DNA from: Alkalilimnicola ehrlichii MLHE-1
GTDB lineage: Bacteria; Pseudomonadota; Gammaproteobacteria; Nitrococcales; Halorhodospiraceae
Length of the DNA stretch: 32,000 bases
Direction of reading: 5' to 3'
Assembly: GCF_000014785.1 (NCBI RefSeq)
Contig: NC_008340.1
Location: forward strand, 300,001-332,000
Shown: in pieces, positions 1 through 26,035 of the stretch
Layout: each line of letters begins with the position of its first letter
Position numbering within the stretch: position 1 is the stretch's first letter
Program-made: the position numbers and the translations under genes
The notes under the pieces: model-generated
Seen by the model: only the letters and a program-made list of their open reading frames with translations
Database searches by the model: none
What the model was told of the DNA's origin: nothing

Positions 1-655
1 TCGGCACGGGTCAGGGTTTTCCACTGGCGGGCCTCGTCCCGGGCGTAGCCCGCGCGGTCGATCTCGGCCATGGCCTGGTAGCGCGGCAGGCGCGCGAGCA
101 GGTTCGCCGGCGGCTGCCAGAGCAGACGGCAGTGGTTGTGGCCGGCCAGTCCGGTGCCGGCGAAGGCCTCCAGTCGGGCATCGACGCCGTCGCGCTCCAC
201 GGGGGCGAGGCCGTTGACGGCGAGACGCCCCCCGGCGGTGTCGAGCCCGACGCCGCCGCCCAGCGCCACGGAGACGGCGGCATGGCCGTGGAGCACGGGC
301 TCGATGTGCAGGCAGTAGCGGCCGATGGAGCGGGCATCGGGGTGATCGGCATCAAGCCCGAAGGGGACGATGACCGGCTCCGCCTTGGAGGGGTCGGGCA
401 GCTGGATGGGCGCGAGGGCGATCTCGCCACGACCGAAATCGAAGGCGTGCTGGCCGCGCAATCGCAACACGACCGGCAAGCCGTGCTGCCCGCGGGCCAC
501 GGTGGCGGTGATGCCCAGCTCGTCGAAGGCAAGGCTGGGGGCCACGCTGACCGTCCGGCCGCCGGCGTTGCCCCCGGTGTCGATGCCGGCGGTGTCCTGG
601 TAGCGGGCGGTCAGGCCGATGCGGGCGCCGGTTCCGGGGGCCTCGGTCTCCGGCT
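1..655. repeat. Direct repeat copy A (partner 2676..3330, constant offset 2675 nt, no indels seen up to about 630)
   Basis: Aligned by eye: long runs are identical, e.g. ggtcagggttttccactggcgggcctcgtcccgggcgtagcccgcgcggtcgatctcggccatggcctggtagcgcggcaggcgcgcgagcaggttcgccggcggctgccagagcagacggcagtggttgtggccggccagtccggtgccggcgaaggcctccagtcgggcatcgacgccgtcgcgctccac. Scattered substitutions occur. Similarity decays right of about 630-700 and still holds at the left window edge. Confidence 0.9.
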
Positions 656-740
656 CGCTCTGCTCCTCCGACTCGGGCCGGCGGCAGCCCCGCCAGGAGC
701 GCCAACCAGTCAGGGTGGTGACCTGCCAAAACAGGAGCAT
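1..740 (-). CDS. 5'-truncated paralog of the central region of the 1100-aa protein (partial, runs off the left window edge)
   Basis: ATG at 740..738 lies 4 nt after the Sel1 gene stop. The frame stays open to position 1, so it has no stop in the window and is missing from the ORF track. My translation is MLLFWQVTTLTGWRSWRGCRRPESEEQSEPETEAPGTGARIGLTARYQDTAGIDTGGNAGGRTVSVAPSLAFDELGITATVARGQHGLPVVLRLRGQHAFDFGRGEIALAPIQLPDPSKAEPVIVPFGLDADHPDARSIGRYCLHIEPVLHGHAAVSVALGGG... It is collinear and in the same frame as about aa 597-815 of the 1817..5119 product. No obvious Shine-Dalgarno precedes the ATG. Confidence 0.55.
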   Translation of the reverse strand, partial: MLLFWQVTTLTGWRSWRGCRRPESEEQSEPETEAPGTGARIGLTARYQDTAGIDTGGNAGGRTVSVAPSLAFDELGITATVARGQHGLPVVLRLRGQHAFDFGRGEIALAPIQLPDPSKAEPVIVPFGLDADHPDARSIGRYCLHIEPVLHGHAAVSVALGGGVGLDTAGGRLAVNGLAPVERDGVDARLEAFAGTGLAGHNHCRLLWQPPANLLARLPRYQAMAEIDRAGYARDEARQWKTLTRA

Positions 741-744
741 TTCG

Positions 745-1758
745 CTACAGGCCGTACTTGGGCGGGAAGTAGGACAGTGGGGGCTCGCGGTTCAGCCAGT
801 CCTCGGCGAGTTCTTCGGCTTCGGCGATTTCTTCGTCGGATAGGCGCTCCCCGTATCGCTCCAGAAGGCTCTCGGCCGTGCTAGCTCGTGTTTCTTCATA
901 CAGCGCGTGCAATATGGCCCACCCTTTGACGGGATCGGGTTCGTCCGGGTAGCAGTAATCAATCAACTCCCCTGGGGCGAGGTGACAAAATCCGTAGGTA
1001 ATGCGCTTCCGAATATGCCCACGCTCCGAACCTTCAACGACCCAGTTCCACGCCGCTTCCATTTTTTCTTGCCGAATTAGATTCCCCACGAGGTTGTATA
1101 TGGCCGGGGCATAGCCCTGCTCGGCGGCCTTGCGGAACCAGGGCTCGGCGGCTTCGACGTCTTTCAGCTGCGGGGGCCATTCGCCGGAGCGTTCCTGGGT
1201 GATAGTTCCCAGCCAATCTTGGGCCTCCGGGTTTCCGGCCTCGGCGGCACGTTCCAGCCAGTCTAGGGCCGTGCGGGGTTCCCCGAGCATGTTGTAGACA
1301 TCAAATAGGGTCGACATGGCGATCGGGTCACCATGTTCGGCCTTGGGTAGTTCCTGCTCGAGAGCCTTGTCCACCCACGCTTCATATTTCTCGGGGCAAA
1401 TGTCAGCCAACTTGCAGATCATGCCGTGTTCGAGCCGGAGCATGGCATGGGGATCCCCGCCCTGCGCCGCGCGGTGGTACCAGTCGATGGCCTCGCGGGA
1501 CATGCCGCGATCCAGTAGCCGGTTCGCCTCGCCCAGGTAGTAGATGGCCTCGACATCACCGGCCCCGGCCGCTTCTTCCAGCGGCGGCTGCATGTCGATC
1601 CATTCATGCAGGCCCCACAGGCGCATTCCTTCTTCTTTAGCCTGTTGCTGCTCGGCATTGAGCTTCAGGGATGTTTTGTCTTCTCCATCGTTGGGTTGAG
1701 CCGTGCCGGCCCATAAGCCAACGATGAGGATGAACACTAGAATTTTTTTGCGGGGCAT
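745..1758 (-). CDS. Secreted Sel1-like repeat (SLR/TPR-family) protein, 337 aa; candidate immunity/partner protein
   Basis: The internal ATG at 1758 of track ORF 745..2169 gives MPRKKILVFILIVGLWAGTAQPNDG. That is a basic n-region, a hydrophobic core and an AxA-like site with no lipobox Cys. Repeated Sel1-type motifs are present (GDVEAIYYLGE...AIDWYHRAAQGGDPHAM; ALDWLERAAEAGNPEAQ; EPWFRKAAEQGYAPAIYNL). The longer 474-aa version would overlap the upstream gene by about 350 nt. Confidence 0.8.
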   Translation of the reverse strand: MPRKKILVFILIVGLWAGTAQPNDGEDKTSLKLNAEQQQAKEEGMRLWGLHEWIDMQPPLEEAAGAGDVEAIYYLGEANRLLDRGMSREAIDWYHRAAQGGDPHAMLRLEHGMICKLADICPEKYEAWVDKALEQELPKAEHGDPIAMSTLFDVYNMLGEPRTALDWLERAAEAGNPEAQDWLGTITQERSGEWPPQLKDVEAAEPWFRKAAEQGYAPAIYNLVGNLIRQEKMEAAWNWVVEGSERGHIRKRITYGFCHLAPGELIDYCYPDEPDPVKGWAILHALYEETRASTAESLLERYGERLSDEEIAEAEELAEDWLNREPPLSYFPPKYGL

Positions 1759-1816
1759 TGCCAAGACCTTTGTTAACCCTGAGCAAACTGGCTCTTGTCG
1801 CCGCACGCTTGCCTTT

Positions 1817-4800
1817 CTACTGAATGTGACGGGAAAGCCAGCCGGCATTCTGTCTGTATTTCCATTGACGGTCCTGTTGCTCCAGCTGTCCGCTGCCTGC
1901 TGACATGAAATTGTCCAGCCGCCCTCGGTTCTCGGCATACGCATCGGCCCTCGATTCGTCGGTAGGCTGTCCGTCTCGGGCCATGCGCACCACGGCCTTT
2001 TCAAACAGCTTCTGCGCCGGGTGCGGGTGCTCTGCGGAGAAGTCGCGTCGGGGGCCGTAGACGCCGGCCATGACGCCGGAGACGATCCATTGCAGGCAGT
2101 TGAGGATCGCCCGTTGGTGGAACACAAGAGCCTGTTCACGCCCGAACCGCTGTACTTGCTTCTGGCCATCCCGCTGAATCTCCACCTCGAACGCCTGCGG
2201 CCGACTGGTCAGGGTGTATAACAGCGGCCCCAGGGCCTCGGGCGGTAGCTGGCGCACCCAGGCGGCAATGGCGTCCCGTTGCGGGTCGTTGACGATGGTG
2301 TAGGCGATCCGGCTGGCCATGTCCCGGTCCCGGGTAAACCACTCGATCATCTGGCGCAGTCGGTGGGTGCCGCGCAGCAGGAGCAGGGCGGGTTCGACCA
2401 GGGTGATGGCGGCGAGATAGGCCAGGCGGCTCATCTCCTCGAAGGCGTCTTCGTCGATCCAGTCGACGCGCTCGTAGCCGACCTCCACCAGCGCCTGGTG
2501 CATCATGGCGAGCCAGAGGTCGAGGTGGCGGGGGTCAAGCGCCAGGCGCACGCTGCCCCCGCCGCCGACGCCGAGCACCAGGCGCAGGGAGGCGTGCAGC
2601 ACGAAGCGGCCGTTGTGCAGGCCGAGCCGGAAGGCGGCCTCGCCGCCGACGCCGACGCGCACCTCGGGGTTGATCTCGGCGGCGGTCAGGGTTTTCCACT
2701 GGCGGGCCTCGTCCCGGGCGTAGCCCGCGCGGTCGATCTCGGCCATGGCCTGGTAGCGCGGCAGGCGCGCGAGCAGGTTCGCCGGCGGCTGCCAGAGCAG
2801 ACGGCAGTGGTTGTGGCCGGCCAGTCCGGTGCCGGCGAAGGCCTCCAGTCGGGCATCGACGCCGTCGCGCTCCACGGGGGCGAGGCCGTTGACGGCGAGA
2901 CGGCCCCCGGCGGTGTCGAGCCCGACGCCGCCGCCCAGCGCCACGGACACGGCGGCATGGCCGTGGAGCACGGGCTCGATGTGCAGGCAGTAGCGGCCGA
3001 TGGAGCGGGCGTCCGGGTGATCCGCCTCCAGCCCGAACGGGACGATGACCGGCTCCGCCTTGGCGGGATCGGGCAGCTGGATGGGCGCGAGGGCGATCTC
3101 GCCACGGCCGAAGTCGAAGGCGTGCTGGCCGCGCAATCGCAACACGACCGGCGAGCCGTGCTGCCCGCGGGCCACGGTGGCGGTGATGCCCAGCTCGTCG
3201 AGAGCGAGGCTGGGGGCCACACTGACCGTCCGGCCGCCGGCGTTGCCCCCGGTGTCGATGCCGGCGGTGTCCTGGTAGCGGGCGGTCAGGCCGATGCGGG
3301 CGCCGTTTCCGGAAGCGGCTGTCTCCGGTTCGGCCTGCGCCACGGGTCCGGGCCGGCGCAGCCACAGGGGTGCCTCCCCGGACAGCGCCCGGTCGCGCCG
3401 GTCGGGCTCGGCGTATGCGCCGGCCAGCAGGCGCAGGAGCTGCGCCGGGCCACTGGCATCGAACAGGCGCATGGGGTGGTTGAGCGGGTCGGCGAACAGG
3501 ATCCGGCGCAGGCGCCGGCCCCACTCCTCCCGGGCGCTGTCGTCGGCAAGGCGGTCGATGACCAGGCCCTGGTGGTCGAGGTCGTGGAAGAAGCGTTCCG
3601 GCTCGAACAGCCCGAGCGGCTCGCTGTGCCAGTCGGGGTTCCAGTCGAGCCGCCGGCAGCCGCGTCGGGTGAGCCACCCGGTCAGTGCCGTGTCGGGCAG
3701 GGAGCGGGGCTCGGTGACCGTGCGGCTGTCGTGCGCGATGGCGGCATCGCGCTGGCGGGCGTAGTGGGGGCGGGTCTCGCCCAGCTGGTGCAGGCTCAGG
3801 TGATCGAGGGTGCGCTGCCGACCGGGGCCGCTGAACTCGCGCAGGGGGAAGTCGGCGCGCACCAGCCGGTGGATCGGGGGCGGGCGGTAGGGTTCGGGGT
3901 CGCGGATGTCGTCGGGGCCCAGGTCCCAGTGCAGGACGCGCCTCGGGCGCGTGCGGTCCACCCGGCGCCGGGCCGTGCGGTAGAGGCGGTCCATGCGCTC
4001 GCGCAGCCGGTCGAACCGCGCCTGCTCGTCGGTGAACAGGAAGATGGGCAGCGGGGTGGCCCGGCCCGTGCCCTGTTCCCACTCCCTGAGCCGCGTGTCC
4101 ACGTCCTCGCGCAAGGCGTCGAGTTCGTCCAGGGTCGCGAAGTAGCGGGCCACGTAGTCCACGCCGTCGGCGAAGCCGGCGTCCGGGTCCTCAGCCAGCG
4201 CCAGCTCGGGGGTGGCCACGCCCAGCCCGGCCAGCTCGATGAGACTGTCGATGTAGTGGCGGTAGTCCTGCTCCAGTTGCGGGATGTAGTGCTCGATCAC
4301 GGAGGCGATCTCGCAGCGTTCGACGGCCTCTGGTACCGGGTCCTGGTCGCAGAGCGCCACATGCCGGCGGTATTGCTCCAGGATCTTATGGAGCGGCCGC
4401 GTCGGTGGCAGGCCCTGACCCTGTTCCAGGTGGGACCGAGCACCCTGGAAAGCAAGCTCCCGCCGCCGGTGATAGCGCTGCAGCGCCTCGCGGATGCGCG
4501 CCTCGCTGTCGCCGTGGACCAGGGCGCTATCGACGACATAGCCGGCCTTCTCGGCCTTGTCCAGGCCGCGTTGATAAAGGGCCTGAAGTGCGTCGAGATG
4601 GTCGTTGCTCTCGTGGATGCGTGCCGGTTCCGGGCATTGGGTCGGTACGGCCGAAGGCATTGAATGGTCGCCGGACCAGGATTGCGAGGTGCTCACGCTG
4701 GTGGTGCCCTGGAAAGGCACGCCGTCCACCACCCGTTGCAGCAGCGTGTCCGGGGCCTCGTCCTGAAGGGCGGCGAGCTGCTGGAGGGTCTGCGCGAACC

Positions 4801-5119
4801 GTTGGCGGTCCGCTTCCCCCAGGAAACTGACCGGATGCGCGGGCAGGAAGCTGTCCAGCACGCCCGCCTCCTCGGACAGCCGCCGGTTGCGCTCGTCGCG
4901 GTCGTCCACGGCGGCGATGTCGGCCAGCTTGTCGGCCGCGTGGTGCATCGCGGCGGCGGCTGTGGCGTTGAGCAGCCAGAACTCGCCGGAGCCGGTGAGA
5001 TAGACGATGTCCGCCCACAGGAACGTTGCGCACAGGGGGCGCGGGTCTTCGTGGAAGAGGTCGTCGTCGCGGCCGCGCGGTCCCGCGGGCCAGACCTGGG
5101 GGGCGATGGAGTCGGTCAT
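1817..5119 (-). CDS. Large hypothetical protein, 1100 aa, no recognisable family; candidate effector/toxin
   Basis: Uninterrupted 3.3-kb ORF with strong GC3 bias in this frame. The 794-aa plus-strand ORF 2279..4663 has the G/V/A/Q/H-rich look of an antisense shadow. No N-terminal signal peptide (MTDSIAPQVWPAGPRGRDDDLFHEDP). The central part is Gly-rich with an alternating, beta-like pattern. The C-terminal part is helical-looking with hydrophobic stretches (LAYLAAITLVEPALLLL, AILNCLQWIVSGVMAGVYG). Confidence 0.85.
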   Translation of the reverse strand: MTDSIAPQVWPAGPRGRDDDLFHEDPRPLCATFLWADIVYLTGSGEFWLLNATAAAAMHHAADKLADIAAVDDRDERNRRLSEEAGVLDSFLPAHPVSFLGEADRQRFAQTLQQLAALQDEAPDTLLQRVVDGVPFQGTTSVSTSQSWSGDHSMPSAVPTQCPEPARIHESNDHLDALQALYQRGLDKAEKAGYVVDSALVHGDSEARIREALQRYHRRRELAFQGARSHLEQGQGLPPTRPLHKILEQYRRHVALCDQDPVPEAVERCEIASVIEHYIPQLEQDYRHYIDSLIELAGLGVATPELALAEDPDAGFADGVDYVARYFATLDELDALREDVDTRLREWEQGTGRATPLPIFLFTDEQARFDRLRERMDRLYRTARRRVDRTRPRRVLHWDLGPDDIRDPEPYRPPPIHRLVRADFPLREFSGPGRQRTLDHLSLHQLGETRPHYARQRDAAIAHDSRTVTEPRSLPDTALTGWLTRRGCRRLDWNPDWHSEPLGLFEPERFFHDLDHQGLVIDRLADDSAREEWGRRLRRILFADPLNHPMRLFDASGPAQLLRLLAGAYAEPDRRDRALSGEAPLWLRRPGPVAQAEPETAASGNGARIGLTARYQDTAGIDTGGNAGGRTVSVAPSLALDELGITATVARGQHGSPVVLRLRGQHAFDFGRGEIALAPIQLPDPAKAEPVIVPFGLEADHPDARSIGRYCLHIEPVLHGHAAVSVALGGGVGLDTAGGRLAVNGLAPVERDGVDARLEAFAGTGLAGHNHCRLLWQPPANLLARLPRYQAMAEIDRAGYARDEARQWKTLTAAEINPEVRVGVGGEAAFRLGLHNGRFVLHASLRLVLGVGGGGSVRLALDPRHLDLWLAMMHQALVEVGYERVDWIDEDAFEEMSRLAYLAAITLVEPALLLLRGTHRLRQMIEWFTRDRDMASRIAYTIVNDPQRDAIAAWVRQLPPEALGPLLYTLTSRPQAFEVEIQRDGQKQVQRFGREQALVFHQRAILNCLQWIVSGVMAGVYGPRRDFSAEHPHPAQKLFEKAVVRMARDGQPTDESRADAYAENRGRLDNFMSAGSGQLEQQDRQWKYRQNAGWLSRHIQ
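2676..3330. repeat. Direct repeat copy B (partner 1..655), inside the 1100-aa CDS
   Basis: See copy A. It corresponds to about aa 597-815 of the large protein. Confidence 0.9.
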
Positions 5120-5271
5120 GCACGGGGCTCCCGGGCCGCCTCGCGCAGGCGTCGCTGATGGTGCAGCAGCGTCAGCCAGTTGTGGGCATCGACGCGCAGG
5201 CCGATCCGAGTGGGTGGCGCCTCAGCGCCTGCGCGCGGCAGGGGAAAGTACAGTCCGTTGTCTTGTTGCAT
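5116..5271 (-). CDS. Possible 51-aa leader/partner ORF, translationally coupled (ATGA overlap) to the 1100-aa gene
   Basis: Below the track size cutoff. My translation is MQQDNGLYFPLPRAGAEAPPTRIGLRVDAHNWLTLLHHQRRLREAARPRA-like (ends ...EPRA). GGAG lies 5 nt upstream of the ATG at 5271. Its TGA stop (5118..5116) overlaps the ATG (5119..5117) of the large gene. About three quarters of its codons end in G/C. Confidence 0.3.
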   Translation of the reverse strand: MQQDNGLYFPLPRAGAEAPPTRIGLRVDAHNWLTLLHHQRRLREAAREPRA

Positions 5272-5307
5272 GCCGGCTCCGTGGCATAAGTCCATGATTC
5301 CGTCTGC

Positions 5308-5336
5308 AGTCTATGGGGCCCGCGTCCCTTCATCAA
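5308..5336 (-). promoter_or_regulatory. Candidate sigma70-type promoter for the leader ORF / 1100-aa gene
   Basis: The minus strand reads TTGATG (5336..5331), a 17-nt spacer, then TAGACT (5313..5308). It lies in the relatively AT-richer gap between the rsmA stop and the leader ORF. This is a pattern match only. Confidence 0.3.
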
Positions 5337-5373
5337 GTCGACGCATTGTGAGGATAAGAGGGCATGGGGCGGC

Positions 5374-6198
5374 TCAAGGAGTATCTCTGCTTGCGTTCCG
5401 TTTTGTTCTGGTGTGGGCCTGGCTCAGGGCGGCAAACTGCTCCAAGGACAGATTCTCGGCCCGTTCTCGGGGGTCAATTCCGACTCCGATAATGGTGTCA
5501 GCGGACATTAACGGGCGCAGGGTGTTGCGTAGGGTCTTGCGGCGCTGGGAGAAGGCCTGGGTCACCAGCCGGGCGAATGCCTGCTCGTCGCCTACGTCCA
5601 CCGTGGGTTCGGCGTGCGGCACCAGCCGGACGAAGGCGGAGTCCACCTTGGGCGGCGGGCGGAAGGCGCCCGGCGGTAGCCGGAACAGGTTGGTGACCGC
5701 GCAGCGGTACTGCACCATTACCGACAGCCGCCCGTAGGTCTTGCTGCCGGGCGGTGCGGCCAGCCGCTCCACCACCTCCTTCTGCAGGGTGAAGTGCATG
5801 TCCTGGATGACATCGGCGCTCTCCAGAAGGTGGAAGAGCAGCGGGGTGGAGATGTTATAGGGTAGATTGCCCACCACCCGCAGCCGTGCTGGCGGTGCTG
5901 GGGCCAGCTGGCGGAAGTCGAAGCGCAGGGCATCGGCCTGGTGCACGGTCAATTCACCGGCGGTGCGGGCCCGCGCCTGCAGCGGGGCCACCAGGTCGCG
6001 GTCCAGCTCCACGGCGGTCAGCCGCCCGGCGGCGCGCAGCAGCGGCAGGGTGAGTGCCCCCTCGCCGGGGCCGATCTCCACCAGGGGGTCGCCGGGCCGG
6101 GGGCGGATGGCCTTGACCATGCGGGAGATCAGTGTGGGATCGTGCAGAAAGTTCTGCCCGAAGCGCTTGCGGGGGCGGTGGCGGCGGTGGTTGTTCAT
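5374..6198 (-). CDS. rsmA: 16S rRNA (adenine1518/1519-N6)-dimethyltransferase
   Basis: 274 aa. N-terminus [28 protein letters not shown] and [14 protein letters not shown] motif, typical of KsgA/RsmA. Confidence 0.95.
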
Positions 6199-13450: not shown

Positions 13451-13757
13451 CAGCGCCGCGGGGTGCCTTGCGCCCTCGCTTATCGTGGCCGTCGGGGTTT
13501 AGGCTCTGGCGGCCTTTTTGTAGCTGGATAAGTCGTGATCGTCCGTGGTGGTTCGTGGGTCCGTGGGCTTGCGGTGACCCGCCCCACCAACGGCCTCCGG
13601 GGGGGTTCTTGGTCAGCGGGGCTTGCGGCGGCGTCACGGAGACCAATGCGGCCCGCGGGCAGTACCTCGGGATCAATCGGGGCGCACAGGGGCGCACTGG
13701 GGCAGCCAGGGTGGCACGAGAGCAGCCTTCCGCGAGCCAGTACCCTTTCAATCGACA

Positions 13758-13865
13758 GGGGCGAGGCGGGGGTTCGGATGCGAATCGTAGGCAGCAGGGA
13801 TGCTGCCTACGAGCCCCCATGGATGGGTTTACGGCGTATTCGCATCCGAACCCCCGCCTCGCCCC
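13758..13865. repeat. Nested perfect palindrome (28-bp outer arms plus inner 11-bp hairpin with GGGA loop)
   Basis: ggggcgaggcgggggttcggatgcgaat (13758..13785) is the exact reverse complement of attcgcatccgaacccccgcctcgcccc (13838..13865). Immediately inside, cgtaggcagca (13786..13796) pairs with tgctgcctacg (13801..13811) around GGGA. It lies in a 510-nt non-coding gap between convergent lpd and prmC. Confidence 0.85.
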
Positions 13866-13962
13866 GTTCCGCGGCTTCCCGCAGCCACCGGGCCTAAGGC
13901 CTCTTCAGCCTTCTCCCTACCCCCGACATCCAACCGCCGACACACCCCGTCCAGGCGCGCTG

Positions 13963-14850
13963 TCAGTCCAGCCGCCCGACCGTCACCCGCTCATGCCCGG
14001 CCAGGTCCCGCAAGGTCTCCACCCCGCCGAACCCGGCCTCCAGGAACAGTCGGCGCACCGCCTCCCCCTGCTGAAAACCGTGCTCCACCATCAACCAACC
14101 GCCGGCCACCAGATGCCCCGGCGCCTCGCCGACGATCCGCCGCAGGTCACCCAGCCCGTCCCGTCCGGCCGCCAGCGCCGACCGCGGCTCGAAGCGCACA
14201 TCGCCCTCATACAGCTCAGGCTCGTGGACGCCCACATAGGGCGGATTGCTCACCACCAGATCAAAACGCTCACCGGCCAGTGGGCCGAACCAGGACCCCG
14301 CCACCACCTGCACCCGATCCGCCAGCCCTAACCGGCGGGCGTTCTCCCGGGCCACCACCAGGGCCCCGGCGCTGGCCTCCACCGCCGTCACCCGCCACGC
14401 CGGACACTCATCCGCCAGCGCCAGCGCAATGGCCCCGGTGCCCGTGCCCAGGTCCGCCACCCGGAGCTGCCGGTCGCCGTCAACCCGGGCCAGCGCCGCC
14501 TCAACCAGCAGCTCCGTCTCCGGGCGGGGGATCAGCGTCTCGGCCGTCACCTTCAGCTCCAGCGACCAGAAACCGCGGCGGCCCGTCAGGTGCGCCACCG
14601 GCTCGCCGGCCAAACGGCGGGCAAGGAGTTGCCGGAAGCGGGCCAGGCTGGATGCCGGCGGACGGTGCTCGGGATGGGCCAGGAAAAAAGCGCGATCGCG
14701 CCCCAGCGCGTGCGCCAGCAGGGCATCGGCGTCCGCGGCCGGCGAGTCGCTGCCCGCCGCCTCCAGTCGGGTGCGGGCGGACCGGCGCAGCTCGGCCAGG
14801 GTGGGCTGCGGCGGGGTGGAGCCCGTGGCGGGGTGCGCTTCCCGGGTCAC
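13963..14850 (-). CDS. prmC: Peptide chain release factor N5-glutamine methyltransferase
   Basis: 295 aa. GEPVAHLTGRRGFWSLEL, LIPRPETE, DLGTGTGAIALALA SAM motif and VVSNPPYV catalytic motif, collinear with E. coli PrmC/HemK. GTG start at 14850 overlaps the upstream stop (GTGA). Confidence 0.92.
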   Translation of the reverse strand: MTREAHPATGSTPPQPTLAELRRSARTRLEAAGSDSPAADADALLAHALGRDRAFFLAHPEHRPPASSLARFRQLLARRLAGEPVAHLTGRRGFWSLELKVTAETLIPRPETELLVEAALARVDGDRQLRVADLGTGTGAIALALADECPAWRVTAVEASAGALVVARENARRLGLADRVQVVAGSWFGPLAGERFDLVVSNPPYVGVHEPELYEGDVRFEPRSALAAGRDGLGDLRRIVGEAPGHLVAGGWLMVEHGFQQGEAVRRLFLEAGFGGVETLRDLAGHERVTVGRLD

Positions 14851-15122
14851 GCCTCGGTGGTCGGCCGGGCGGCGGAGGCCGGGATGGCGCGCTCCTCCAG
14901 CATGATCGGGATGCCGTCCTCCACCGGATAGATGCGCTGATCGTTCTCCGTGATCAGGGCCTCACGCAGCGGCGTCTCCACCGGGCTGTCGTCCATATGC
15001 CGCACCTCGCCCTGCTCGATCCGCTGGTTGAGTCGCTTCAGGGCATCCGCCTCCAGCAGGCGCACCGGCTGCTTGGTCACCGGGCAGCACAGTATGTCCA
15101 GCAATTTCTTGTCCAGGCTCAT
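14847..15122 (-). CDS. Trm112/YcaR (UPF0434) family protein, 91 aa with a central insertion
   Basis: MSLDKKLLDILCCPVTKQPV ... RIYPVEDGIPIMLEERAI matches the N- and C-terminal halves of the Trm112-like fold as in E. coli YcaR. About 30 extra residues lie between them. Confidence 0.8.
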   Translation of the reverse strand: MSLDKKLLDILCCPVTKQPVRLLEADALKRLNQRIEQGEVRHMDDSPVETPLREALITENDQRIYPVEDGIPIMLEERAIPASAARPTTEA

Positions 15123-15306
15123 CGTTGCGGGCTCGACTGCAAAAAGTGGGTCTCCAGTATAGCACCGGGCACCGCCAGCCCGGTTCCGGTAAGGGCAAGC
15201 CTTGCCGCCCGGCGATGCCGCTCAAGACCTGGCGGCGTCTGCCGTTTATTGGCCCAGGACACAACGGTTCGCCAACGGGCGGATTTCAGGCATTGGGGGG
15301 ATACCC

Positions 15307-16554
15307 ATGGTGGAACACGAGCCTCAACACCAGGCAAGGGGTGAGCACCGACAGGACCACGCGCACTGCTCCTTCTGTGGGCGCCCCGAGGACCAGACTG
15401 GGCCGCTCATCGCCGGGGCGGAGGCGTGGATCTGTGAAGACTGCGTGGCCGAGTCCAAGGCGCGGCTGGACAGCGAATTCACCGGATCACTGACCGACCA
15501 GCTGGCCGGTCTGTCCACCCCGAGGCAGCTGCACGCCCACCTGGACGGCTACGTGATCGGACAGGAACGGGCCAAGCGCCAGTTGGCGGTGGCCGTCTAC
15601 AACCACTATAAGCGACTGATCTGGCGCGGTGCCCGCCGGCCCGGTGAGGTGGCCAAGAGCAATATCCTCATGGTCGGGCCCACCGGCAGTGGCAAGACCC
15701 TGCTGTTGGAGAGCCTGGCCCGCCACCTGGAGGTGCCCTTCGTCACCGCGGACGCCTCCACCTTCACCGCCGCCGGTTATGCCGGGGCCGATGTGGATGA
15801 CATCGCCGTCCGGTTGCTGGAGGCCGCCGGTGGTGATCCTGCCGCCGCGCGTCGGGGCATGGTCTTTCTGGACGAAGTGGACAAGCTGGCATGCCGCGCA
15901 CCGGGCGGCAGCGGTAACGGTCGCGACTTCTCCGGTGAGGGGGTGCAGCAGGCGCTGCTGCGTCTGCTCGAGGGGCGGGTGGTTAACGTGCCGCGCCGGG
16001 GCCGCGGGGGCGGCGTCCACAGCGTGGACACCCGCGACGTGCTGTTTGTCTGCGGCGGCGCATTCCAGGGGCTGCGTCAGCAGATGGCCGGGCGTCGCGC
16101 CGGCGGTGGCGTGGGCTTCGGGGCCCGCCTGGCCGAGACCGCCGAACCGCCGGCAGTCCCGGATGCGGACGACCTGGTGCACTACGGACTGATCCCCGAG
16201 CTGGTGGGACGGCTGCCGGTGGTCACCACCCTGGAGGCATTGAGCGAGGCACAGCTACTGGAGGTCATCAGTCGGCCGCGCAACGCCCTGCTGCGCCAGT
16301 ACCAGGCACTGTTCCGGCAGGACGGCTGTGAGCTGCACTTCACCGCCGGCGCCCTCGAGGCCCTGGCCCGGCGCGCCGCCGAGCGCGGCACCGGTGCCCG
16401 TGGTCTGCGCGCGGAGCTGGAGCGCCTGTTGCTGGAACCCATGTACCACGTTCCGGCCCGGGGCGATGTCGAGGCCGTGGTGGTTACGACCGAGTCAGTG
16501 GCTGGGGCACCTGTGCGCTACTGCAGAAGCCAGGCCTTGCGGCAGGTGGGTTAG
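15307..16554 (+). CDS. ClpX-like AAA+ unfoldase paralog (divergent pore loops)
   Basis: 415 aa from the ATG at 15307. C4 zinc-binding domain CSFCGRPEDQTGPLIAGAEAWICEDC, Walker A GPTGSGKT, Walker B MVFLDEVDK, sensor-2 GARGLR. It is collinear with E. coli ClpX but has GYAG for GYVG, VGF for IGF and a shortened region without R-K-H. It is not next to clpP or lon. Confidence 0.85.
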   Translation: MVEHEPQHQARGEHRQDHAHCSFCGRPEDQTGPLIAGAEAWICEDCVAESKARLDSEFTGSLTDQLAGLSTPRQLHAHLDGYVIGQERAKRQLAVAVYNHYKRLIWRGARRPGEVAKSNILMVGPTGSGKTLLLESLARHLEVPFVTADASTFTAAGYAGADVDDIAVRLLEAAGGDPAAARRGMVFLDEVDKLACRAPGGSGNGRDFSGEGVQQALLRLLEGRVVNVPRRGRGGGVHSVDTRDVLFVCGGAFQGLRQQMAGRRAGGGVGFGARLAETAEPPAVPDADDLVHYGLIPELVGRLPVVTTLEALSEAQLLEVISRPRNALLRQYQALFRQDGCELHFTAGALEALARRAAERGTGARGLRAELERLLLEPMYHVPARGDVEAVVVTTESVAGAPVRYCRSQALRQVG

Positions 16555-16673
16555 GCAGCCGGTGCCCGCCTTGCGTAACAGTAAGTTTGGCGGTAAGGGG
16601 CTGGAGCGGCTAATATGTCGCCCTTGTGTCCAACTAGTCGGCCCTTGTAGTGGCCGGGAGCACCGAACCGCCT

Positions 16674-17750
16674 ATGTCTGATCGTACTGTGGACGACCTG
16701 AACGTCGAGAAGATCGAGCACCTCCCCACCCCCGCCGAGATCAAGGCCCAGCTGCCGCTCAGCGAGCAAGCCCGCCGTCTGGTGGTCGAGGGTCGGGAGA
16801 CCGTTCGCAACATCCTGGATGGCAAGGATCACCGGCTGTTGGTGGTGGTGGGGCCCTGTTCCATCCACGACCCCAAAGCGGCGCTGGACTATGCCAAGCA
16901 ACTGAAAGCGCTGAGTGATCAGGTGGGCGACAGTCTGTTCATCGTCATGCGGGTCTATTTTGAGAAGCCGCGCACGGTGACCGGGTGGAAGGGGCTGATC
17001 AACGACCCCGACATGGACGACTCCTTCCGGATCGACAATGGCCTGTTCCAGGCGCGCAAACTGCTGCTGGACCTGGCTGAGATGGGACTGCCCACAGCCA
17101 CCGAAGCGCTCGACCCGATCATCCCGCAGTACCTGCAGGACCTGATCACCTGGACGGCCATTGGTGCCCGCACCACCGAATCGCAGACCCACCGCGAGAT
17201 GGCCAGCGGCCTCTCCACGCCGGTCGGATTCAAGAATGGCACCGACGGCAGCCTGGACGTGGCCATCAACGCCATGAAGTCCGCCGCCCATCCGCACAGC
17301 TTCCTGGGCATCAACTCCCGCGGCGAGTGCAGTATCATCCGGACCCGCGGCAACAGCTACGGCCACGTGGTGCTGCGCGGCGGCCATGGCCAGCCCAATT
17401 ACGACAGCGTGCACATTGCCCTGTGCGAGCAGGAGCTGGAAAAGGCGGGGCTGCCCGCGCGGATCGTGGTCGACTGCAGCCACGCCAACTCCAACAAGGA
17501 CCCGGCGCTGCAGCCCATGGTGCTGAAGGACCTGGTGCACCAGATCCTGGAGGGCAACCAGTCGCTGGTGGGCGTCATGCTGGAGAGCAACCTGGGCTGG
17601 GGCAACCAGAAGCTGGGGGCCGATCCCGCTGCCCTCGACTACGGGGTCTCCATCACCGATGCCTGTATCGACTGGCCGACCACCGAGCAGGGTCTGCTGG
17701 AGGCGGCGGAAAAGCTGCGCGAGGTGTTGCCCCGGCGGGCCGCGGCCTGA
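16674..17750 (+). CDS. aroG: 3-deoxy-7-phosphoheptulonate (DAHP) synthase, class I
   Basis: DDLNVEKIEHLPTPAEIKAQLP...DHRLLVVVGPCSIHDP aligns with the E. coli AroG N-terminus. KPRT and GxxxESN-type motifs are present. Isozyme (feedback specificity) cannot be told from sequence. The start may instead be the GTG at 16650. Confidence 0.9.
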   Translation: MSDRTVDDLNVEKIEHLPTPAEIKAQLPLSEQARRLVVEGRETVRNILDGKDHRLLVVVGPCSIHDPKAALDYAKQLKALSDQVGDSLFIVMRVYFEKPRTVTGWKGLINDPDMDDSFRIDNGLFQARKLLLDLAEMGLPTATEALDPIIPQYLQDLITWTAIGARTTESQTHREMASGLSTPVGFKNGTDGSLDVAINAMKSAAHPHSFLGINSRGECSIIRTRGNSYGHVVLRGGHGQPNYDSVHIALCEQELEKAGLPARIVVDCSHANSNKDPALQPMVLKDLVHQILEGNQSLVGVMLESNLGWGNQKLGADPAALDYGVSITDACIDWPTTEQGLLEAAEKLREVLPRRAAA

Positions 17751-23446: not shown

Positions 23447-24045
23447 GGCGCGGGCGTCTGCTTATTGCCGGCCTGGCGGCGCTGGTGCTGTCCGCCTGCG
23501 CCACCCTCCCCGAGCCGGTGGACGACCCAAAGGCCCGCTACCAGGAGGCGGTCGAGCGACTGCGGGCGCAGACCGACTGGGACGCGAGCGGGCGTGCCGC
23601 CCTGCGCACTGCGGACGATGCCGGCAGCCTGTCGTTGGAATGGCGCCAGCGCGGAGAGACCTACCAAGTGGACCTGCGCGCCCCCCTGGGTGCCGGCAGC
23701 GCGCGGCTGGAGGGCGGGCCGGAGGGGGTCTGGCTGACCACCTCGGCCGGTGACCGCGAGTACGCCCCGGACCCCGAGACCCTGGTGGCCTGGTTCACCG
23801 GCTACCAGGTGCCCGTCAGCGCCCTGCGCTACTGGCTGCGTGGCCTCGACGCCCCGGGGCCTGAGGTGGAGCGGCTGGACCTCGACCCGGCCGGGCGACC
23901 GGAGCGGCTGCATCAGGCCGGCTGGGAGGTGGTCTACCGGGACTGGAGCCAGACCAACGGCCTGCCACTGCCCCGGCGGTTGGACATCTCCCGCGGCGAG
24001 GACAGCGTGCGGGTGGTGATCCGCGATTGGAGCCTGGCACCATGA
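23443..24045 (+). CDS. lolB: Outer-membrane lipoprotein insertion protein LolB
   Basis: 200 aa. Lipobox LSAC (MRRGRLLIAGLAALVLSACA), with size and position (between the TPR gene and ispE) as in other gammaproteobacteria. Contains YWLRG and WEVVYRDW segments. Confidence 0.8.
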   Translation: MRRGRLLIAGLAALVLSACATLPEPVDDPKARYQEAVERLRAQTDWDASGRAALRTADDAGSLSLEWRQRGETYQVDLRAPLGAGSARLEGGPEGVWLTTSAGDREYAPDPETLVAWFTGYQVPVSALRYWLRGLDAPGPEVERLDLDPAGRPERLHQAGWEVVYRDWSQTNGLPLPRRLDISRGEDSVRVVIRDWSLAP

Positions 24046-24917
24046 GCTGGTCCCGCCACTGGCCGGCCCCGGCCAAGATTAACCTTTTCCTGCACATCCT
24101 CGGCCGCCGCCCCGACGGCTATCATCGGCTGCAGACCGCCTTCCAGATCCTGGACCGGGGTGACGAACTGGCGTTCCGGGTCCGCCCCGACGGTGAGCTG
24201 CGGCGCCGGGGCGGACTGGATCACGTGCCGCCGGACCAGGACCTGACCGTGCGTGCCGCCCGCCTGCTGCAACAGACCACCGGTTGCCGGCTCGGCGCGG
24301 ACATCGTGCTGGACAAACGCCTGCCCGATGGCGGCGGCCTGGGCGGCGGCAGCTCCAACGCCGCCACCGTGCTGCAAGCCTTGAACCGGCTCTGGGGCAC
24401 CGGCCTGTCGACCCTGGAGCTGGCTGGCCTGGGTCTGCGGCTGGGCGCCGATGTGCCGGTCTTCGTGCATGGCCGAACCGCCTGGGCGGAGGGGGTGGGC
24501 GAGCGGCTTACCCCCATTGAGACCCCGTCGCGCTGGTTTCTGGTGGTGCATCCCGGGTGCCGCGTGTCCACCGCCGAGGTCTTCGCCGCGGAGGGTTTGA
24601 CAAGGGACAGCGCGCCGAGCACAATATCGGCCCTTCGCGCCGGGAGGGTCCGCAATGACTGCGAGCCCTGGGTGCGTGCCCACTACCGCGCCGTGGACGA
24701 GGCCCTGGGTTGGCTGTCGCGGTTTGCGCCGGCACGCATGACCGGCACGGGGGCCTGCGTGTTCGCGCCCTTCGAGCGCGAGGCGCAGGCCCGGGCCGCG
24801 CTGGACAGGCTGCCGGCCGCCTGGCAGGGTTTCGTGGCGCAAGGCGTTGCGTGCTCCTCCTTGCTTGGGCGGTTGCGTGGTGAGCAGGACAGCGCCGACA
24901 GGGATGGCCCGACATAG
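24042..24917 (+). CDS. ispE: 4-diphosphocytidyl-2-C-methyl-D-erythritol kinase
   Basis: ATG at 24042 overlaps the lolB stop (ATGA). WPAPAKINLFLHILGRRPDGYH and the GHMP kinase motif PDGGGLGGGSSNAA. Confidence 0.93.
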   Translation: MSWSRHWPAPAKINLFLHILGRRPDGYHRLQTAFQILDRGDELAFRVRPDGELRRRGGLDHVPPDQDLTVRAARLLQQTTGCRLGADIVLDKRLPDGGGLGGGSSNAATVLQALNRLWGTGLSTLELAGLGLRLGADVPVFVHGRTAWAEGVGERLTPIETPSRWFLVVHPGCRVSTAEVFAAEGLTRDSAPSTISALRAGRVRNDCEPWVRAHYRAVDEALGWLSRFAPARMTGTGACVFAPFEREAQARAALDRLPAAWQGFVAQGVACSSLLGRLRGEQDSADRDGPT

Positions 24918-24944
24918 CCGACGGTGTCGGCACCGATCAACAAC

Positions 24945-25019
24945 TGGGGCGTCGCCAAGCGGTAAGGCACGGGTTTTTGGTACCCGCATTCCCAGGTTCG
25001 AATCCTGGCGCCCCAGCCA
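24945..25019 (+). tRNA. tRNA-Gln (anticodon UUG), CCA encoded
   Basis: TGGGGCGTCGCCAAGCGGTAAGGCACGGGTTTTTGGTACCCGCATTCCCAGGTTCGAATCCTGGCGCCCCAGCCA folds as a cloverleaf: 7-bp acceptor, anticodon stem CGGGT/ACCCG, loop TTTTGGT, T-arm CCAGG-TTCGAAT-CCTGG. It is nearly identical to E. coli tRNA-Gln in the D-arm and T-arm. Confidence 0.95.
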
Positions 25020-25096
25020 TTTCCCTTCCCGCGAGCAGCCGGCTCAACCGGACCGCAACCGCAACGGGGTAGTGCGCTGTGAATGACAACGGACGC

Positions 25097-26035
25097 ATGA
25101 TGGTGTTTGCGGGTAACTCTAACCCGCAACTGGCCGAGTCCATTGCCGAGCATCTCAAGACCCGCCTGGGCCACGCCGTGGTCGGTCGCTTCAGCGACGG
25201 CGAGATCATGGTGGAGGTCAACGAACACGTGCGCGGCAAGGACGTCTTCGTGGTCCAGTCCACCTGCGCACCCAGCAACGACAACCTCATGGAGTTGCTG
25301 GTCATCATCGATGCCCTGCGCCGGTCCTCCGCCGCCCGCATCACCGCGGTCATCCCCTACTTCGGCTATGCCCGTCAGGACCGCCGCCCGCGCTCCCAGC
25401 GCGTGCCCATCTCGGCGCGGCTGGTGGCGAACATGCTGGAGGCGGCCGGGGTCAACCGCGTGCTCACGGTGGACCTGCACGCCGACCAGATCCAGGGCTT
25501 TTTCAACATCCCGGTGGACAACGTCTACGCCTCGCCCATGCTGCTGGGCGATATCTGGCGCCAGCTCTATCCGCGCAAGATCGTCGTCTCGCCGGACGTG
25601 GGCGGCGTGGTGCGCGCCCGGGCCATTGCCAAGAGACTGGACGACGCCGACCTGGCCATTATCGACAAGCGCCGGCCGCGGGCCAACGAGTCCAAGGTCA
25701 TGAACATCATCGGCGATGTGCAGGACAAGACCTGCATCATCGTCGACGACATGGTGGATACCGCCGGCACCCTCTGTGAGGCGGCCAAGGTGCTCAAGGA
25801 CAAGGGCGCCTTCAAGGTGGTGGCCTACATTACCCACCCGGTGTTGTCGGGCAATGCCATCAACCGGATCAGCGAGTCCCACCTGGATGAGCTGGTGGTG
25901 AGCAATACGATCCCGCTGAGCAGCGAGGCCCAGTCCTGCGATAAGATCCGCCAGCTGTCCATTGCGGACATCCTGGCCGAGACCATGCGGCGCGTCAGCC
26001 AGGACGAGTCGGTCAGCGAGCTGTTCGTGGAGTAA
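25097..26035 (+). CDS. prs: Ribose-phosphate pyrophosphokinase
   Basis: [20 protein letters not shown]..., [31 protein letters not shown] and [15 protein letters not shown] motif. The start is uncertain: ATG 25097 or 25100, or GTG 25079 as in the track. Confidence 0.93.

Follow-up and report, generated by a model that had tools for sequence, protein, structure and literature searches.

Among type VI secretion system (T6SS) effectors, those of the VasX/Tke5 type bind the adaptor through their N-terminal region and kill from the periplasmic side through their C-terminal part. In Pseudomonas aeruginosa, the effector Tle5b/PldB is provided with three tandem Sel1-like immunity proteins (PA5086-PA5088), and in Klebsiella pneumoniae an array of Sel1 genes lies downstream of VgrG4, with Sel1E as the antitoxin. 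Rhs/CdiA loci are composed of a full-length gene and its immunity gene, followed by promoterless 5'-truncated copies that keep a homology tract and have their own immunity genes. Here, we report the analysis of a locus of Alkalilimnicola ehrlichii MLHE-1 that occupies positions 1-5336 of a stretch of 32,000 nucleotides (nt) (NC_008340.1, positions 300,001 to 332,000), which is called the window in this text. On the minus strand it carries, in this order, a 51-codon open reading frame (ORF), an ORF of 1100 codons, an ORF of 337 codons for a Sel1-repeat protein, and an ORF running out of the window at its left end. An earlier interpretation made from the letters alone, called the sequence-only reading below, had proposed an undescribed effector/immunity family laid out like a polymorphic toxin locus. 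We consider, with a probability of about 85%, that the locus consists of a T6SS effector, a periplasmic Sel1 immunity protein and an orphan cassette of an unnamed family.

The genomic context of the homologues is central to this interpretation. Among the loci taken from species genomes and tabulated by ORF and BLASTP, 16 of 17 have VgrG and/or DUF4123 genes upstream and are followed by 1 to 7 Sel1 paralogues, the typical order being (Hcp)-VgrG-DUF4123-effector-Sel1. Two Halomonas homologues with 33-36% identity over the full length have VgrG and DUF4123 upstream and Sel1 downstream; in one Halomonas locus Hcp is found upstream and vipA/vipB/tssE/F/G downstream, and Halomonas sp. I1 and H. getboli have T6SS core genes next to the locus. 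Homologues with 71-72% identity (metagenome, Thioalkalivibrio-type contigs) also come after VgrG-DUF4123, and so do full-length homologues in Pseudomonas. A Sel1 gene lies directly downstream of the effector gene in all related loci, in arrays of 1 to 7 paralogues, and truncated C-terminal copies of the effector, each followed by Sel1 genes, have been found in Halomonas sp. I1, Onishia niordana, H. koreensis and a metagenome contig. Such a context is typical of antibacterial cargo effectors that are loaded on VgrG and come with periplasmic immunity and orphan cassettes. The gene order and the recurrent truncated copies therefore speak for the effector/immunity family that had been suspected, and a limited literature search found no prior description of the effector.

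The family is larger than a simple search indicates. A word-indexed search with the effector found six relatives only, and the full profile search found 422 representatives of clusters at 50% identity, 66 of which have E-values below 1e-30. They come from Halomonas, Larsenimonas, Pseudomonas, Marinobacter, Vibrio, Photobacterium, Enterovibrio and Motilimonas, and also from Ectothiorhodospiraceae; where the sources name them, the names are "hypothetical" or "LysM domain-containing", and many members do have an N-terminal LysM domain. The window protein itself has no family match in Pfam, NCBIfam or PADLOC and no sequence match in PDB, and the family profile matched only LysM proteins among the PDB sequences, through its LysM-bearing members. 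Neither profile searches nor Foldseek pointed to a housekeeping or structural homologue, and the locus is not conserved as a single-copy core locus. An anti-phage defence system was considered and rejected, as PADLOC gave no match for the effector.

Several loci of the family deserve mention in their own right. The short-read contigs L023 (1063 bp), L026 (1463 bp) and L027 (1248 bp) all break just inside the effector gene, past DUF4123; breaks at tens to hundreds of bases after the effector start are expected when a genome has several effector copies, and the family may be under-represented or fragmented in draft genomes. Several ORFs take the place of the effector gene in L020 (Halomonas olivaria) and L022 (H. 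sulfidaeris ATCC BAA-803). In L022 the genes for VgrG and DUF4123 are broken up as well, at least one full-length Sel1 paralogue being kept there, and L020 has Sel1 fragments only; this fits decay of the effector with immunity genes outlasting it. Four to seven tandem Sel1 paralogues follow a single effector gene in L018 (Halomonas salifodinae IM328), L009 and L010, and these arrays look like accumulated immunity against non-kin alleles. In L028 (Vibrio scophthalmi, 13509-16958), an Hcp-VgrG-DUF4123-LysM effector-immunity-PAAR module lies between transposase genes of the IS66 family and the rve type, which suggests a mobile auxiliary T6SS module.

The same species has a second locus of this kind, which is linked to VgrG. 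When the closest relative's adaptor was used as the query, the DUF4123 gene Mlg_1144 of MLHE-1 was recovered, and the effector paralogue Mlg_1143 adjoins it. On a 1-kb contig, the C-terminal end of VgrG and this DUF4123 gene are followed by ATGA and by 25 nt identical to the first 25 nt of the window effector gene. The complete array is seen in another A. ehrlichii strain, CP184336 (L030), as VgrG(710)-DUF4123(263)-effector(1095)-Sel1(337)-orphan(541)-Sel1(326)-orphan(457)-Sel1(336)-phoU. Homology between this array and the window locus, which lies next to rsmA, starts ~20 nt ahead of the effector ATG (at about position 5139) and continues at about 95% through the gene, and the window effector is 93.5-95.6% identical to the VgrG-linked paralogue, the N-terminal half included. 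By this comparison the window copy is most simply described as a paralogue that stands apart from a canonical vgrG-DUF4123-effector-Sel1-orphan array in the same genome. Because the homology ends about 20 nt before the ATG and neither a spike gene nor an adaptor gene accompanies the window copy, it would have to borrow both in trans; the N-terminal half being about 95% identical to that of the VgrG-linked paralogue, loading by the adaptor and spike of the other locus is plausible. A separate point on this paralogue is that the 2006 annotation gives Mlg_1143 a length of 697 amino acids (aa), but the re-sequenced MLHE-1 genome one of 1095 aa, which suggests a frameshift or an assembly problem in one of the records.

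The 337-aa product had been regarded as a signal-peptide-bearing Sel1-repeat protein, and we agree with this. The protein begins with MPRKKILVFILIVGLWAGTAQP and has an N-terminal signal sequence and four Cys; the Pfam family Sel1 (PF08238) matches it with 35.6 bits against a gathering cut-off of 30.7, giving three repeats, and the solved Sel1-repeat proteins 6ok3 (E 1e-19) and 4bwr (E 1e-17) are matched in PDB. The Sel1 proteins of these loci form a family of their own with the conserved C-terminal tail W-L-N-x-E-P-P-L-S-x-F-P-P-x-Y-G. The G+C content of the Sel1 gene is about 0.60, as against 0.69-0.75 for the effector gene and about 0.68 for the rest of the window and the genome. The N-terminus of every immunity paralogue is hydrophobic, of the signal or lipoprotein type, and each paralogue has four Cys or more, which argues that the toxin would act in the periplasm. 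Judging from the genomic context, the Sel1 protein probably serves as a periplasmic immunity protein.

Three lines of evidence point to the C-terminal half of the large protein (aa ~658-1100) as the putative toxin module. Orphan copies in every lineage keep aa ~588/671-1100 only. LysM effectors of Vibrio, Photobacterium and Motilimonas, which are encoded in loci of the order Hcp-VgrG-DUF4123-effector-X(-PAAR), share only this half with the window protein: identity of the Vibrionaceae/Motilimonas branch is 19-24% in the C-terminal half and 12-18%, the noise level, in the N-terminal half. The protein X of these loci, a signal- or lipoprotein of 366-387 aa with extra copies in an array in V. ruber, is homologous to the Sel1 immunity protein (hhalign probability 92%, E 5e-7 over 249 columns), so that the immunity gene seems to travel with the C-terminal half. 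Across about 50 full-length homologues, the identities of the N-terminal and C-terminal halves to the window protein go closely together (ratio 0.85-1.25).

Structure prediction and conservation describe the two halves further. The AlphaFold model of the full-length effector has a predicted local distance difference test (pLDDT) value of 76 and a predicted template modelling score (pTM) of 0.78, and the C-terminal half (aa 655-1100) modelled alone has 81.7 and 0.82. The N-terminal half, mostly helical, is modelled with confidence over aa 31-570; the C-terminal half consists of a Gly-rich beta region (658-860) and then a helical region (863-1100). Foldseek searches against PDB with the full and C-half models, and against BFVD with the full model, gave no meaningful neighbour: the best E-values were 0.07-0.3 with template modelling (TM) scores of at most 0.16, mostly to Hsp70 ATPase domains and designed helical repeats, and were taken as noise. 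In the N-terminal half, C30, E305 (in G-x-A-x-P-E), E428 (in P-L-R-E) and R563 are each conserved in at least 95%. In a profile alignment of 147 C-terminal halves, only Gly, Pro, Trp, Leu, Phe and Ala occupy the columns conserved in at least 90%, and the best polar positions, E961, Q1001 and R1045, reach 81-83%. The motif scan of the effector, which found no GxSxG, HxKxxxxD, HExxH, MIX, PAAR or Rhs motif, agrees with the by-eye statement that PAAR, Rhs/YD, MIX-like, GxSxG and HxKxxxxD motifs are lacking. The hydrophobicity profile has one borderline stretch, at aa 897-917 (Kyte-Doolittle 1.6).

The left-running ORF had been recognized as a 5'-truncated copy of the large gene. Window positions 1-640 and 2676-3315 are 96.4% identical, ungapped and in the same orientation, with mismatch-free runs of 180 nt, and the match fades over positions 640-690; with this identity, the ORF repeats the main protein from aa ~588 on. 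Its first ~25 codons keep a remnant of codons 479-501 of the main gene, and thus the copy arose by 5' truncation and internal deletion. The re-sequenced MLHE-1 genome (CP183314.1, L031) extends the window leftwards, a step that the sequence-only reading had called for, and there the copy is an intact ORF of 543 codons, 100% identical to the 246 aa visible in the window. About 55-95 nt after it, outside the window, comes a second Sel1 paralogue of 275-288 aa, which has lost ~50 residues and is 49% identical to the first by BLASTP (64% over the aligned columns of a local alignment). The left copy is therefore no identical duplicate: it has its own partner gene, and BLASTP gives its protein 84% identity to aa 588-1100 of the main one, or 88% over aligned columns. 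The loop at aa ~940-960 is longer in it, the segment at ~985-995 is shorter, and the last ~35 residues are unrelated and make a different C-terminal tail.

Comparison of the copies revealed mosaic recombination tracts. The homology of the 541-543-aa orphans begins in the linker, at aa 588 of the main protein, and the direct repeat in the window could fuse the N-terminal part of the main protein to the orphan C-terminus by a deletion of 2675 nt. A tract of 1209 nt is 99.2% identical between the orphan of the rsmA locus and the second orphan of the VgrG-linked locus, with flanks of ~89%. The C-terminal halves of main and orphan copies are 82-94% identical, and two types of C-terminal tail have been shuffled among them; the window effector copy is distinguishable by its KYRQNAGWLSRHIQ tail. 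From these sequences, the cassettes appear to be alleles of one toxin domain and not different toxins. A correlation of the effector tail types with the N-terminal types of Sel1 was considered and rejected: the pairings do not match, and we therefore make no claim on specificity determinants. The two genome records of MLHE-1 differ at 10 of 10,740 aligned positions, all of them at window positions 2948-3160, and 7 of the 10 turn the main copy to the base of the orphan. Either the cassettes underwent gene conversion in laboratory lineages, or the 4-5 paralogous copies were mis-assembled.

We infer that the protein is secreted and toxic, that the Sel1 protein neutralizes it, and that its two halves share the labour in the following manner. 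The N-terminal half (aa ~30-587) would be recognized by the DUF4123 adaptor and loaded onto the VgrG spike, and the C-terminal ~440 aa would act as the toxin in the periplasm of the target cell, the secreted Sel1 protein binding and neutralizing it in the producer and its kin. The orphan cassette, i.e., the truncated copy with the second Sel1 gene, would not be loadable alone; recombination across the 640-nt tract could place the orphan behind the main N-terminal part and so give a changed toxin/immunity allele. The window copy presumably uses the adaptor and spike of the VgrG-linked locus in trans.

The features of the locus are listed in the table. The proteins correspond by exact look-up to ABI55619-ABI55622 of A. 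ehrlichii MLHE-1, and the coordinates and spacings that had been read from the letters were all reproduced, including a gap of 58 nt between the effector and Sel1 ORFs and the ATG at position 740, four nt past the TAG of the Sel1 gene, which opens the left-running ORF.

Table. Positions of the locus features in the window.
Feature	Position	Strand	Remark
Full-length effector gene, 1100 aa	1817..5119	-	ABI55621.1 / WP_011628017.1, A. ehrlichii MLHE-1; annotated "hypothetical protein"
N-terminal half of effector, aa 1-587; putative loading domain	3359..5119	-	missing from all orphan copies
Linker of effector, aa 588-657, predicted disordered, poorly conserved	3149..3358	-	pLDDT below 50 over aa 590-657
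C-terminal putative toxin module, aa 658-1100	1820..3148	-	kept by orphan copies
Putative cognate immunity gene (from context), periplasmic Sel1-like-repeat protein, 337 aa, ABI55620.1	745..1758	-	
Orphan cassette, 5'-truncated effector copy, ABI55619.1 (543 aa in full)	1..740	-	leaves window
Homology tract in main effector gene, pairing with window 1-690	2676..3365	-	direct repeat
51-codon ORF, ATGA overlap with effector start	5116..5271	-	junction between rsmA and duplicated module

The 51-codon ORF had been described as coupled to the effector gene. The ATGA overlap is confirmed, and the ORF, which is called as a gene in loci L001 and L031, lies outside the duplicated module: as homology to the VgrG-linked array starts only ~20 nt before the effector ATG, it represents junction sequence and is probably outside the effector-immunity system. 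The idea that this 51/59-codon ORF is a remnant of the DUF4123 adaptor was rejected as unsupported; the best BLASTP match had an E-value of 0.017 over 16 aa, MAFFT set its "RRLREA" opposite the adaptor C-terminus, and blastn and tblastx gave nothing consistent.

The remainder of the window is housekeeping, as had been stated. It holds rsmA, 254 nt upstream of the effector gene on the same strand, genes for a DUF502 protein, pyruvate dehydrogenase E1/E2/E3, a ClpX-like protein and DAHP (3-deoxy-D-arabino-heptulosonate 7-phosphate) synthase together with prmC, and further prfA, hemA, ychF and the UDP-glucose dehydrogenase gene. In this otherwise well-annotated stretch, two long overlapping ORFs without a Pfam match are set on the minus strand (23934-24989 and 24683-25882), at most one of which is likely to be real. 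As to signatures of mobile elements, no tRNA was found in the 21.6-kb locus, and none of the called genes codes for an integrase or transposase.

Some observations weigh against a working T6SS effector at the window locus. The window copy has no adjacent vgrG or DUF4123 gene and follows rsmA and the 51-codon ORF; no T6SS core gene (tssA-M, hcp) was found within 10 kb of either A. ehrlichii locus; and the orphan copy is without an obvious ribosome-binding site. The promoter-like site that had been claimed upstream could not be confirmed: a sigma-70 scan of window positions 1-5600 found none, and the best match by eye is 8/12 (TTGATG-17-TAGACT). In addition, a search with the C-terminal VgrG fragment for VgrG and T6SS core genes of MLHE-1 returned Halomonas fragments only, and a limited literature search found nothing relevant on T6SS in Alkalilimnicola. 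It is unlikely, in our estimate, that the window locus is a non-functional, decaying duplicate of the vgrG-linked array, a genetic reservoir or a leftover of segmental duplication that is neither expressed nor delivered and is kept only as its Sel1 genes protect against kin. The homology starting so close to the ATG, with no vgrG, DUF4123 or promoter-like site, would suit such a duplicate, as would the shortened second Sel1 paralogue and the examples elsewhere (L020, L022) of decaying effectors with persisting immunity genes. Against this, three A. ehrlichii genome records, two of them of strain MLHE-1, all have an unbroken 1100-codon ORF, which remains close to its VgrG-linked paralogue; the N-terminal half expected to bind the adaptor is preserved, which makes trans-loading plausible; the 543-codon orphan is intact; and the position behind rsmA on the same strand would allow read-through or an unrecognized promoter to drive the effector gene. 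Very improbable, in our judgement, is a large protein that is not a toxin and is instead an accessory or structural T6SS component or an anti-eukaryotic effector, with the Sel1 proteins as co-secreted partners or chaperones. A recognizable toxic domain is indeed lacking, and Sel1-repeat proteins are mentioned in the literature as acting in host interaction in some bacteria; on the other hand, the layout is the signature of antibacterial effectors with immunity, the gene is variably present behind vgrG and the adaptor, up to seven diverged signal-peptide paralogues and orphan fragments each with its own partner occur, and the hosts are free-living halophiles and alkaliphiles.

Granting the T6SS effector-immunity reading, we tentatively favour, at less than even odds, a non-enzymatic attack on the envelope, i.e., membrane insertion, pore formation or binding of an envelope component, because the C-terminal half has no polar residue conserved in at least 90% and catalytic motifs are absent. 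Several points go against this guess. For a pore-former, the effector has just the one borderline hydrophobic stretch, and the Sel1 immunity protein looks soluble, unlike the immunity proteins of the pore-forming VasX/Tke5-family effectors, which are inner-membrane proteins. The conserved polar residues of the N-terminal half, C30, E305, E428 and R563, could be catalytic, and LysM fusions go mostly with peptidoglycan hydrolases in a published survey (PMC10673891). The system could thus be of the same effector-immunity type with a toxin that is an enzyme of unrecognized fold, acting on the cell wall or another periplasmic substrate, its catalytic centre sitting in the N-terminal half or spanning both; we find this doubtful. 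Beyond the four near-invariant residues, it can draw on the periplasmic immunity and on the N-terminal LysM peptidoglycan-binding domain of many members, since the survey of vgrG loci ties LysM mainly to lysozyme-like, NlpD and NlpC/P60 toxins (PMC10673891) and the LysM effectors of A. baumannii are, according to published work, peptidoglycan hydrolases. It is countered by the orphan cassettes and the Vibrionaceae branch, which keep the C-terminal half, and not the N-terminal half, together with the immunity gene, by the C-terminal half without highly conserved polar residues, and by profile searches that gave no hydrolase, lipase or peptidase family and Foldseek searches that gave no similar fold. 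LysM, moreover, can serve VgrG loading instead of catalysis; it assists in loading T6SS effectors onto VgrG (PMC10673891). More speculative, and in our view likewise doubtful, is that the C-terminal ~440 aa represent a new class of periplasm-acting T6SS toxins without catalytic residues, with a fold absent from PDB and an undescribed killing mechanism. Such a class might bind and jam a machine of envelope biogenesis without pores or hydrolysis and be neutralized by the cysteine-bridged Sel1 protein, and the cassette arrays might generate diverse allele specificities by way of the C-terminal tail and the short variable loop at aa ~940-960.

Naming the family as a T6SS effector and the downstream genes as immunity genes can give annotation to hundreds of loci, and the family offers the T6SS field a toxin domain without recognizable fold or catalytic motif. 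The pair of loci in A. ehrlichii illustrates compactly how cassettes of paralogous toxin-immunity modules are shuffled in nature, which may include a change between two sequencings of strain MLHE-1, and the window gives an example of an effector copy parted from its spike and adaptor genes. The case also indicates that an argument on layout from the raw sequence alone can correctly flag an effector-immunity island.

Compared with known systems, the present effector family is similar to VasX (V. cholerae), Tke5 (P. putida) and Ptx2 (P. aeruginosa) of the BTH_I2691 family in size (996-1086 aa for these proteins) and in that vgrG and DUF4123 come directly before; the immunity gene is next to the effector in that family as here, and some of its members have an N-terminal LysM. 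It differs in having no run of transmembrane helices, in its domain order, with a C-terminus that is beta-rich and then helical, and in an immunity protein that appears to be a soluble periplasmic Sel1 protein instead of an inner-membrane protein. The models NF041559 and VasX_N (MIX_II) gave no match to the window protein (E up to 1) or to eight diverse family members (E up to 0.1), and the hRxGhhYhh MIX motif was not found in the window protein. Membership in the VasX/Tke5 (BTH_I2691) family, which size and adaptor had suggested, was rejected in the absence of any model or motif match.

Tle5b/PldB and VgrG4-Sel1E resemble the present loci in that tandem Sel1 paralogues come directly after a VgrG-associated toxin. 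The effector here has no PLD (HxKxxxxD) or lipase (GxSxG) domain and is not a C-terminal extension of VgrG, and a Tle lipase or PLD effector, as suggested by the Sel1 immunity, was rejected because neither motif nor domain was found. As in Rhs/CdiA loci, the orphan toxin fragments each have their own immunity gene and a homology tract, and recombination of cassettes is evident; to this extent the proposed polymorphic-toxin layout stands. It does not stand as to a variable C-terminal toxin: the C-terminal domain is not hypervariable, and N- and C-terminal halves diverge in step. By Pfam and motif scans, the locus has no Rhs/YD repeats, PAAR, or VENN or PxxxxDPxGL demarcation motifs. The rule for DUF4123/VgrG cargo effectors, that the gene lies right after vgrG and the adaptor gene, holds for the homologues and for the same-strain paralogue, but not for the window copy. 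The effector family is thus new and unnamed, and of a familiar T6SS effector-immunity type.

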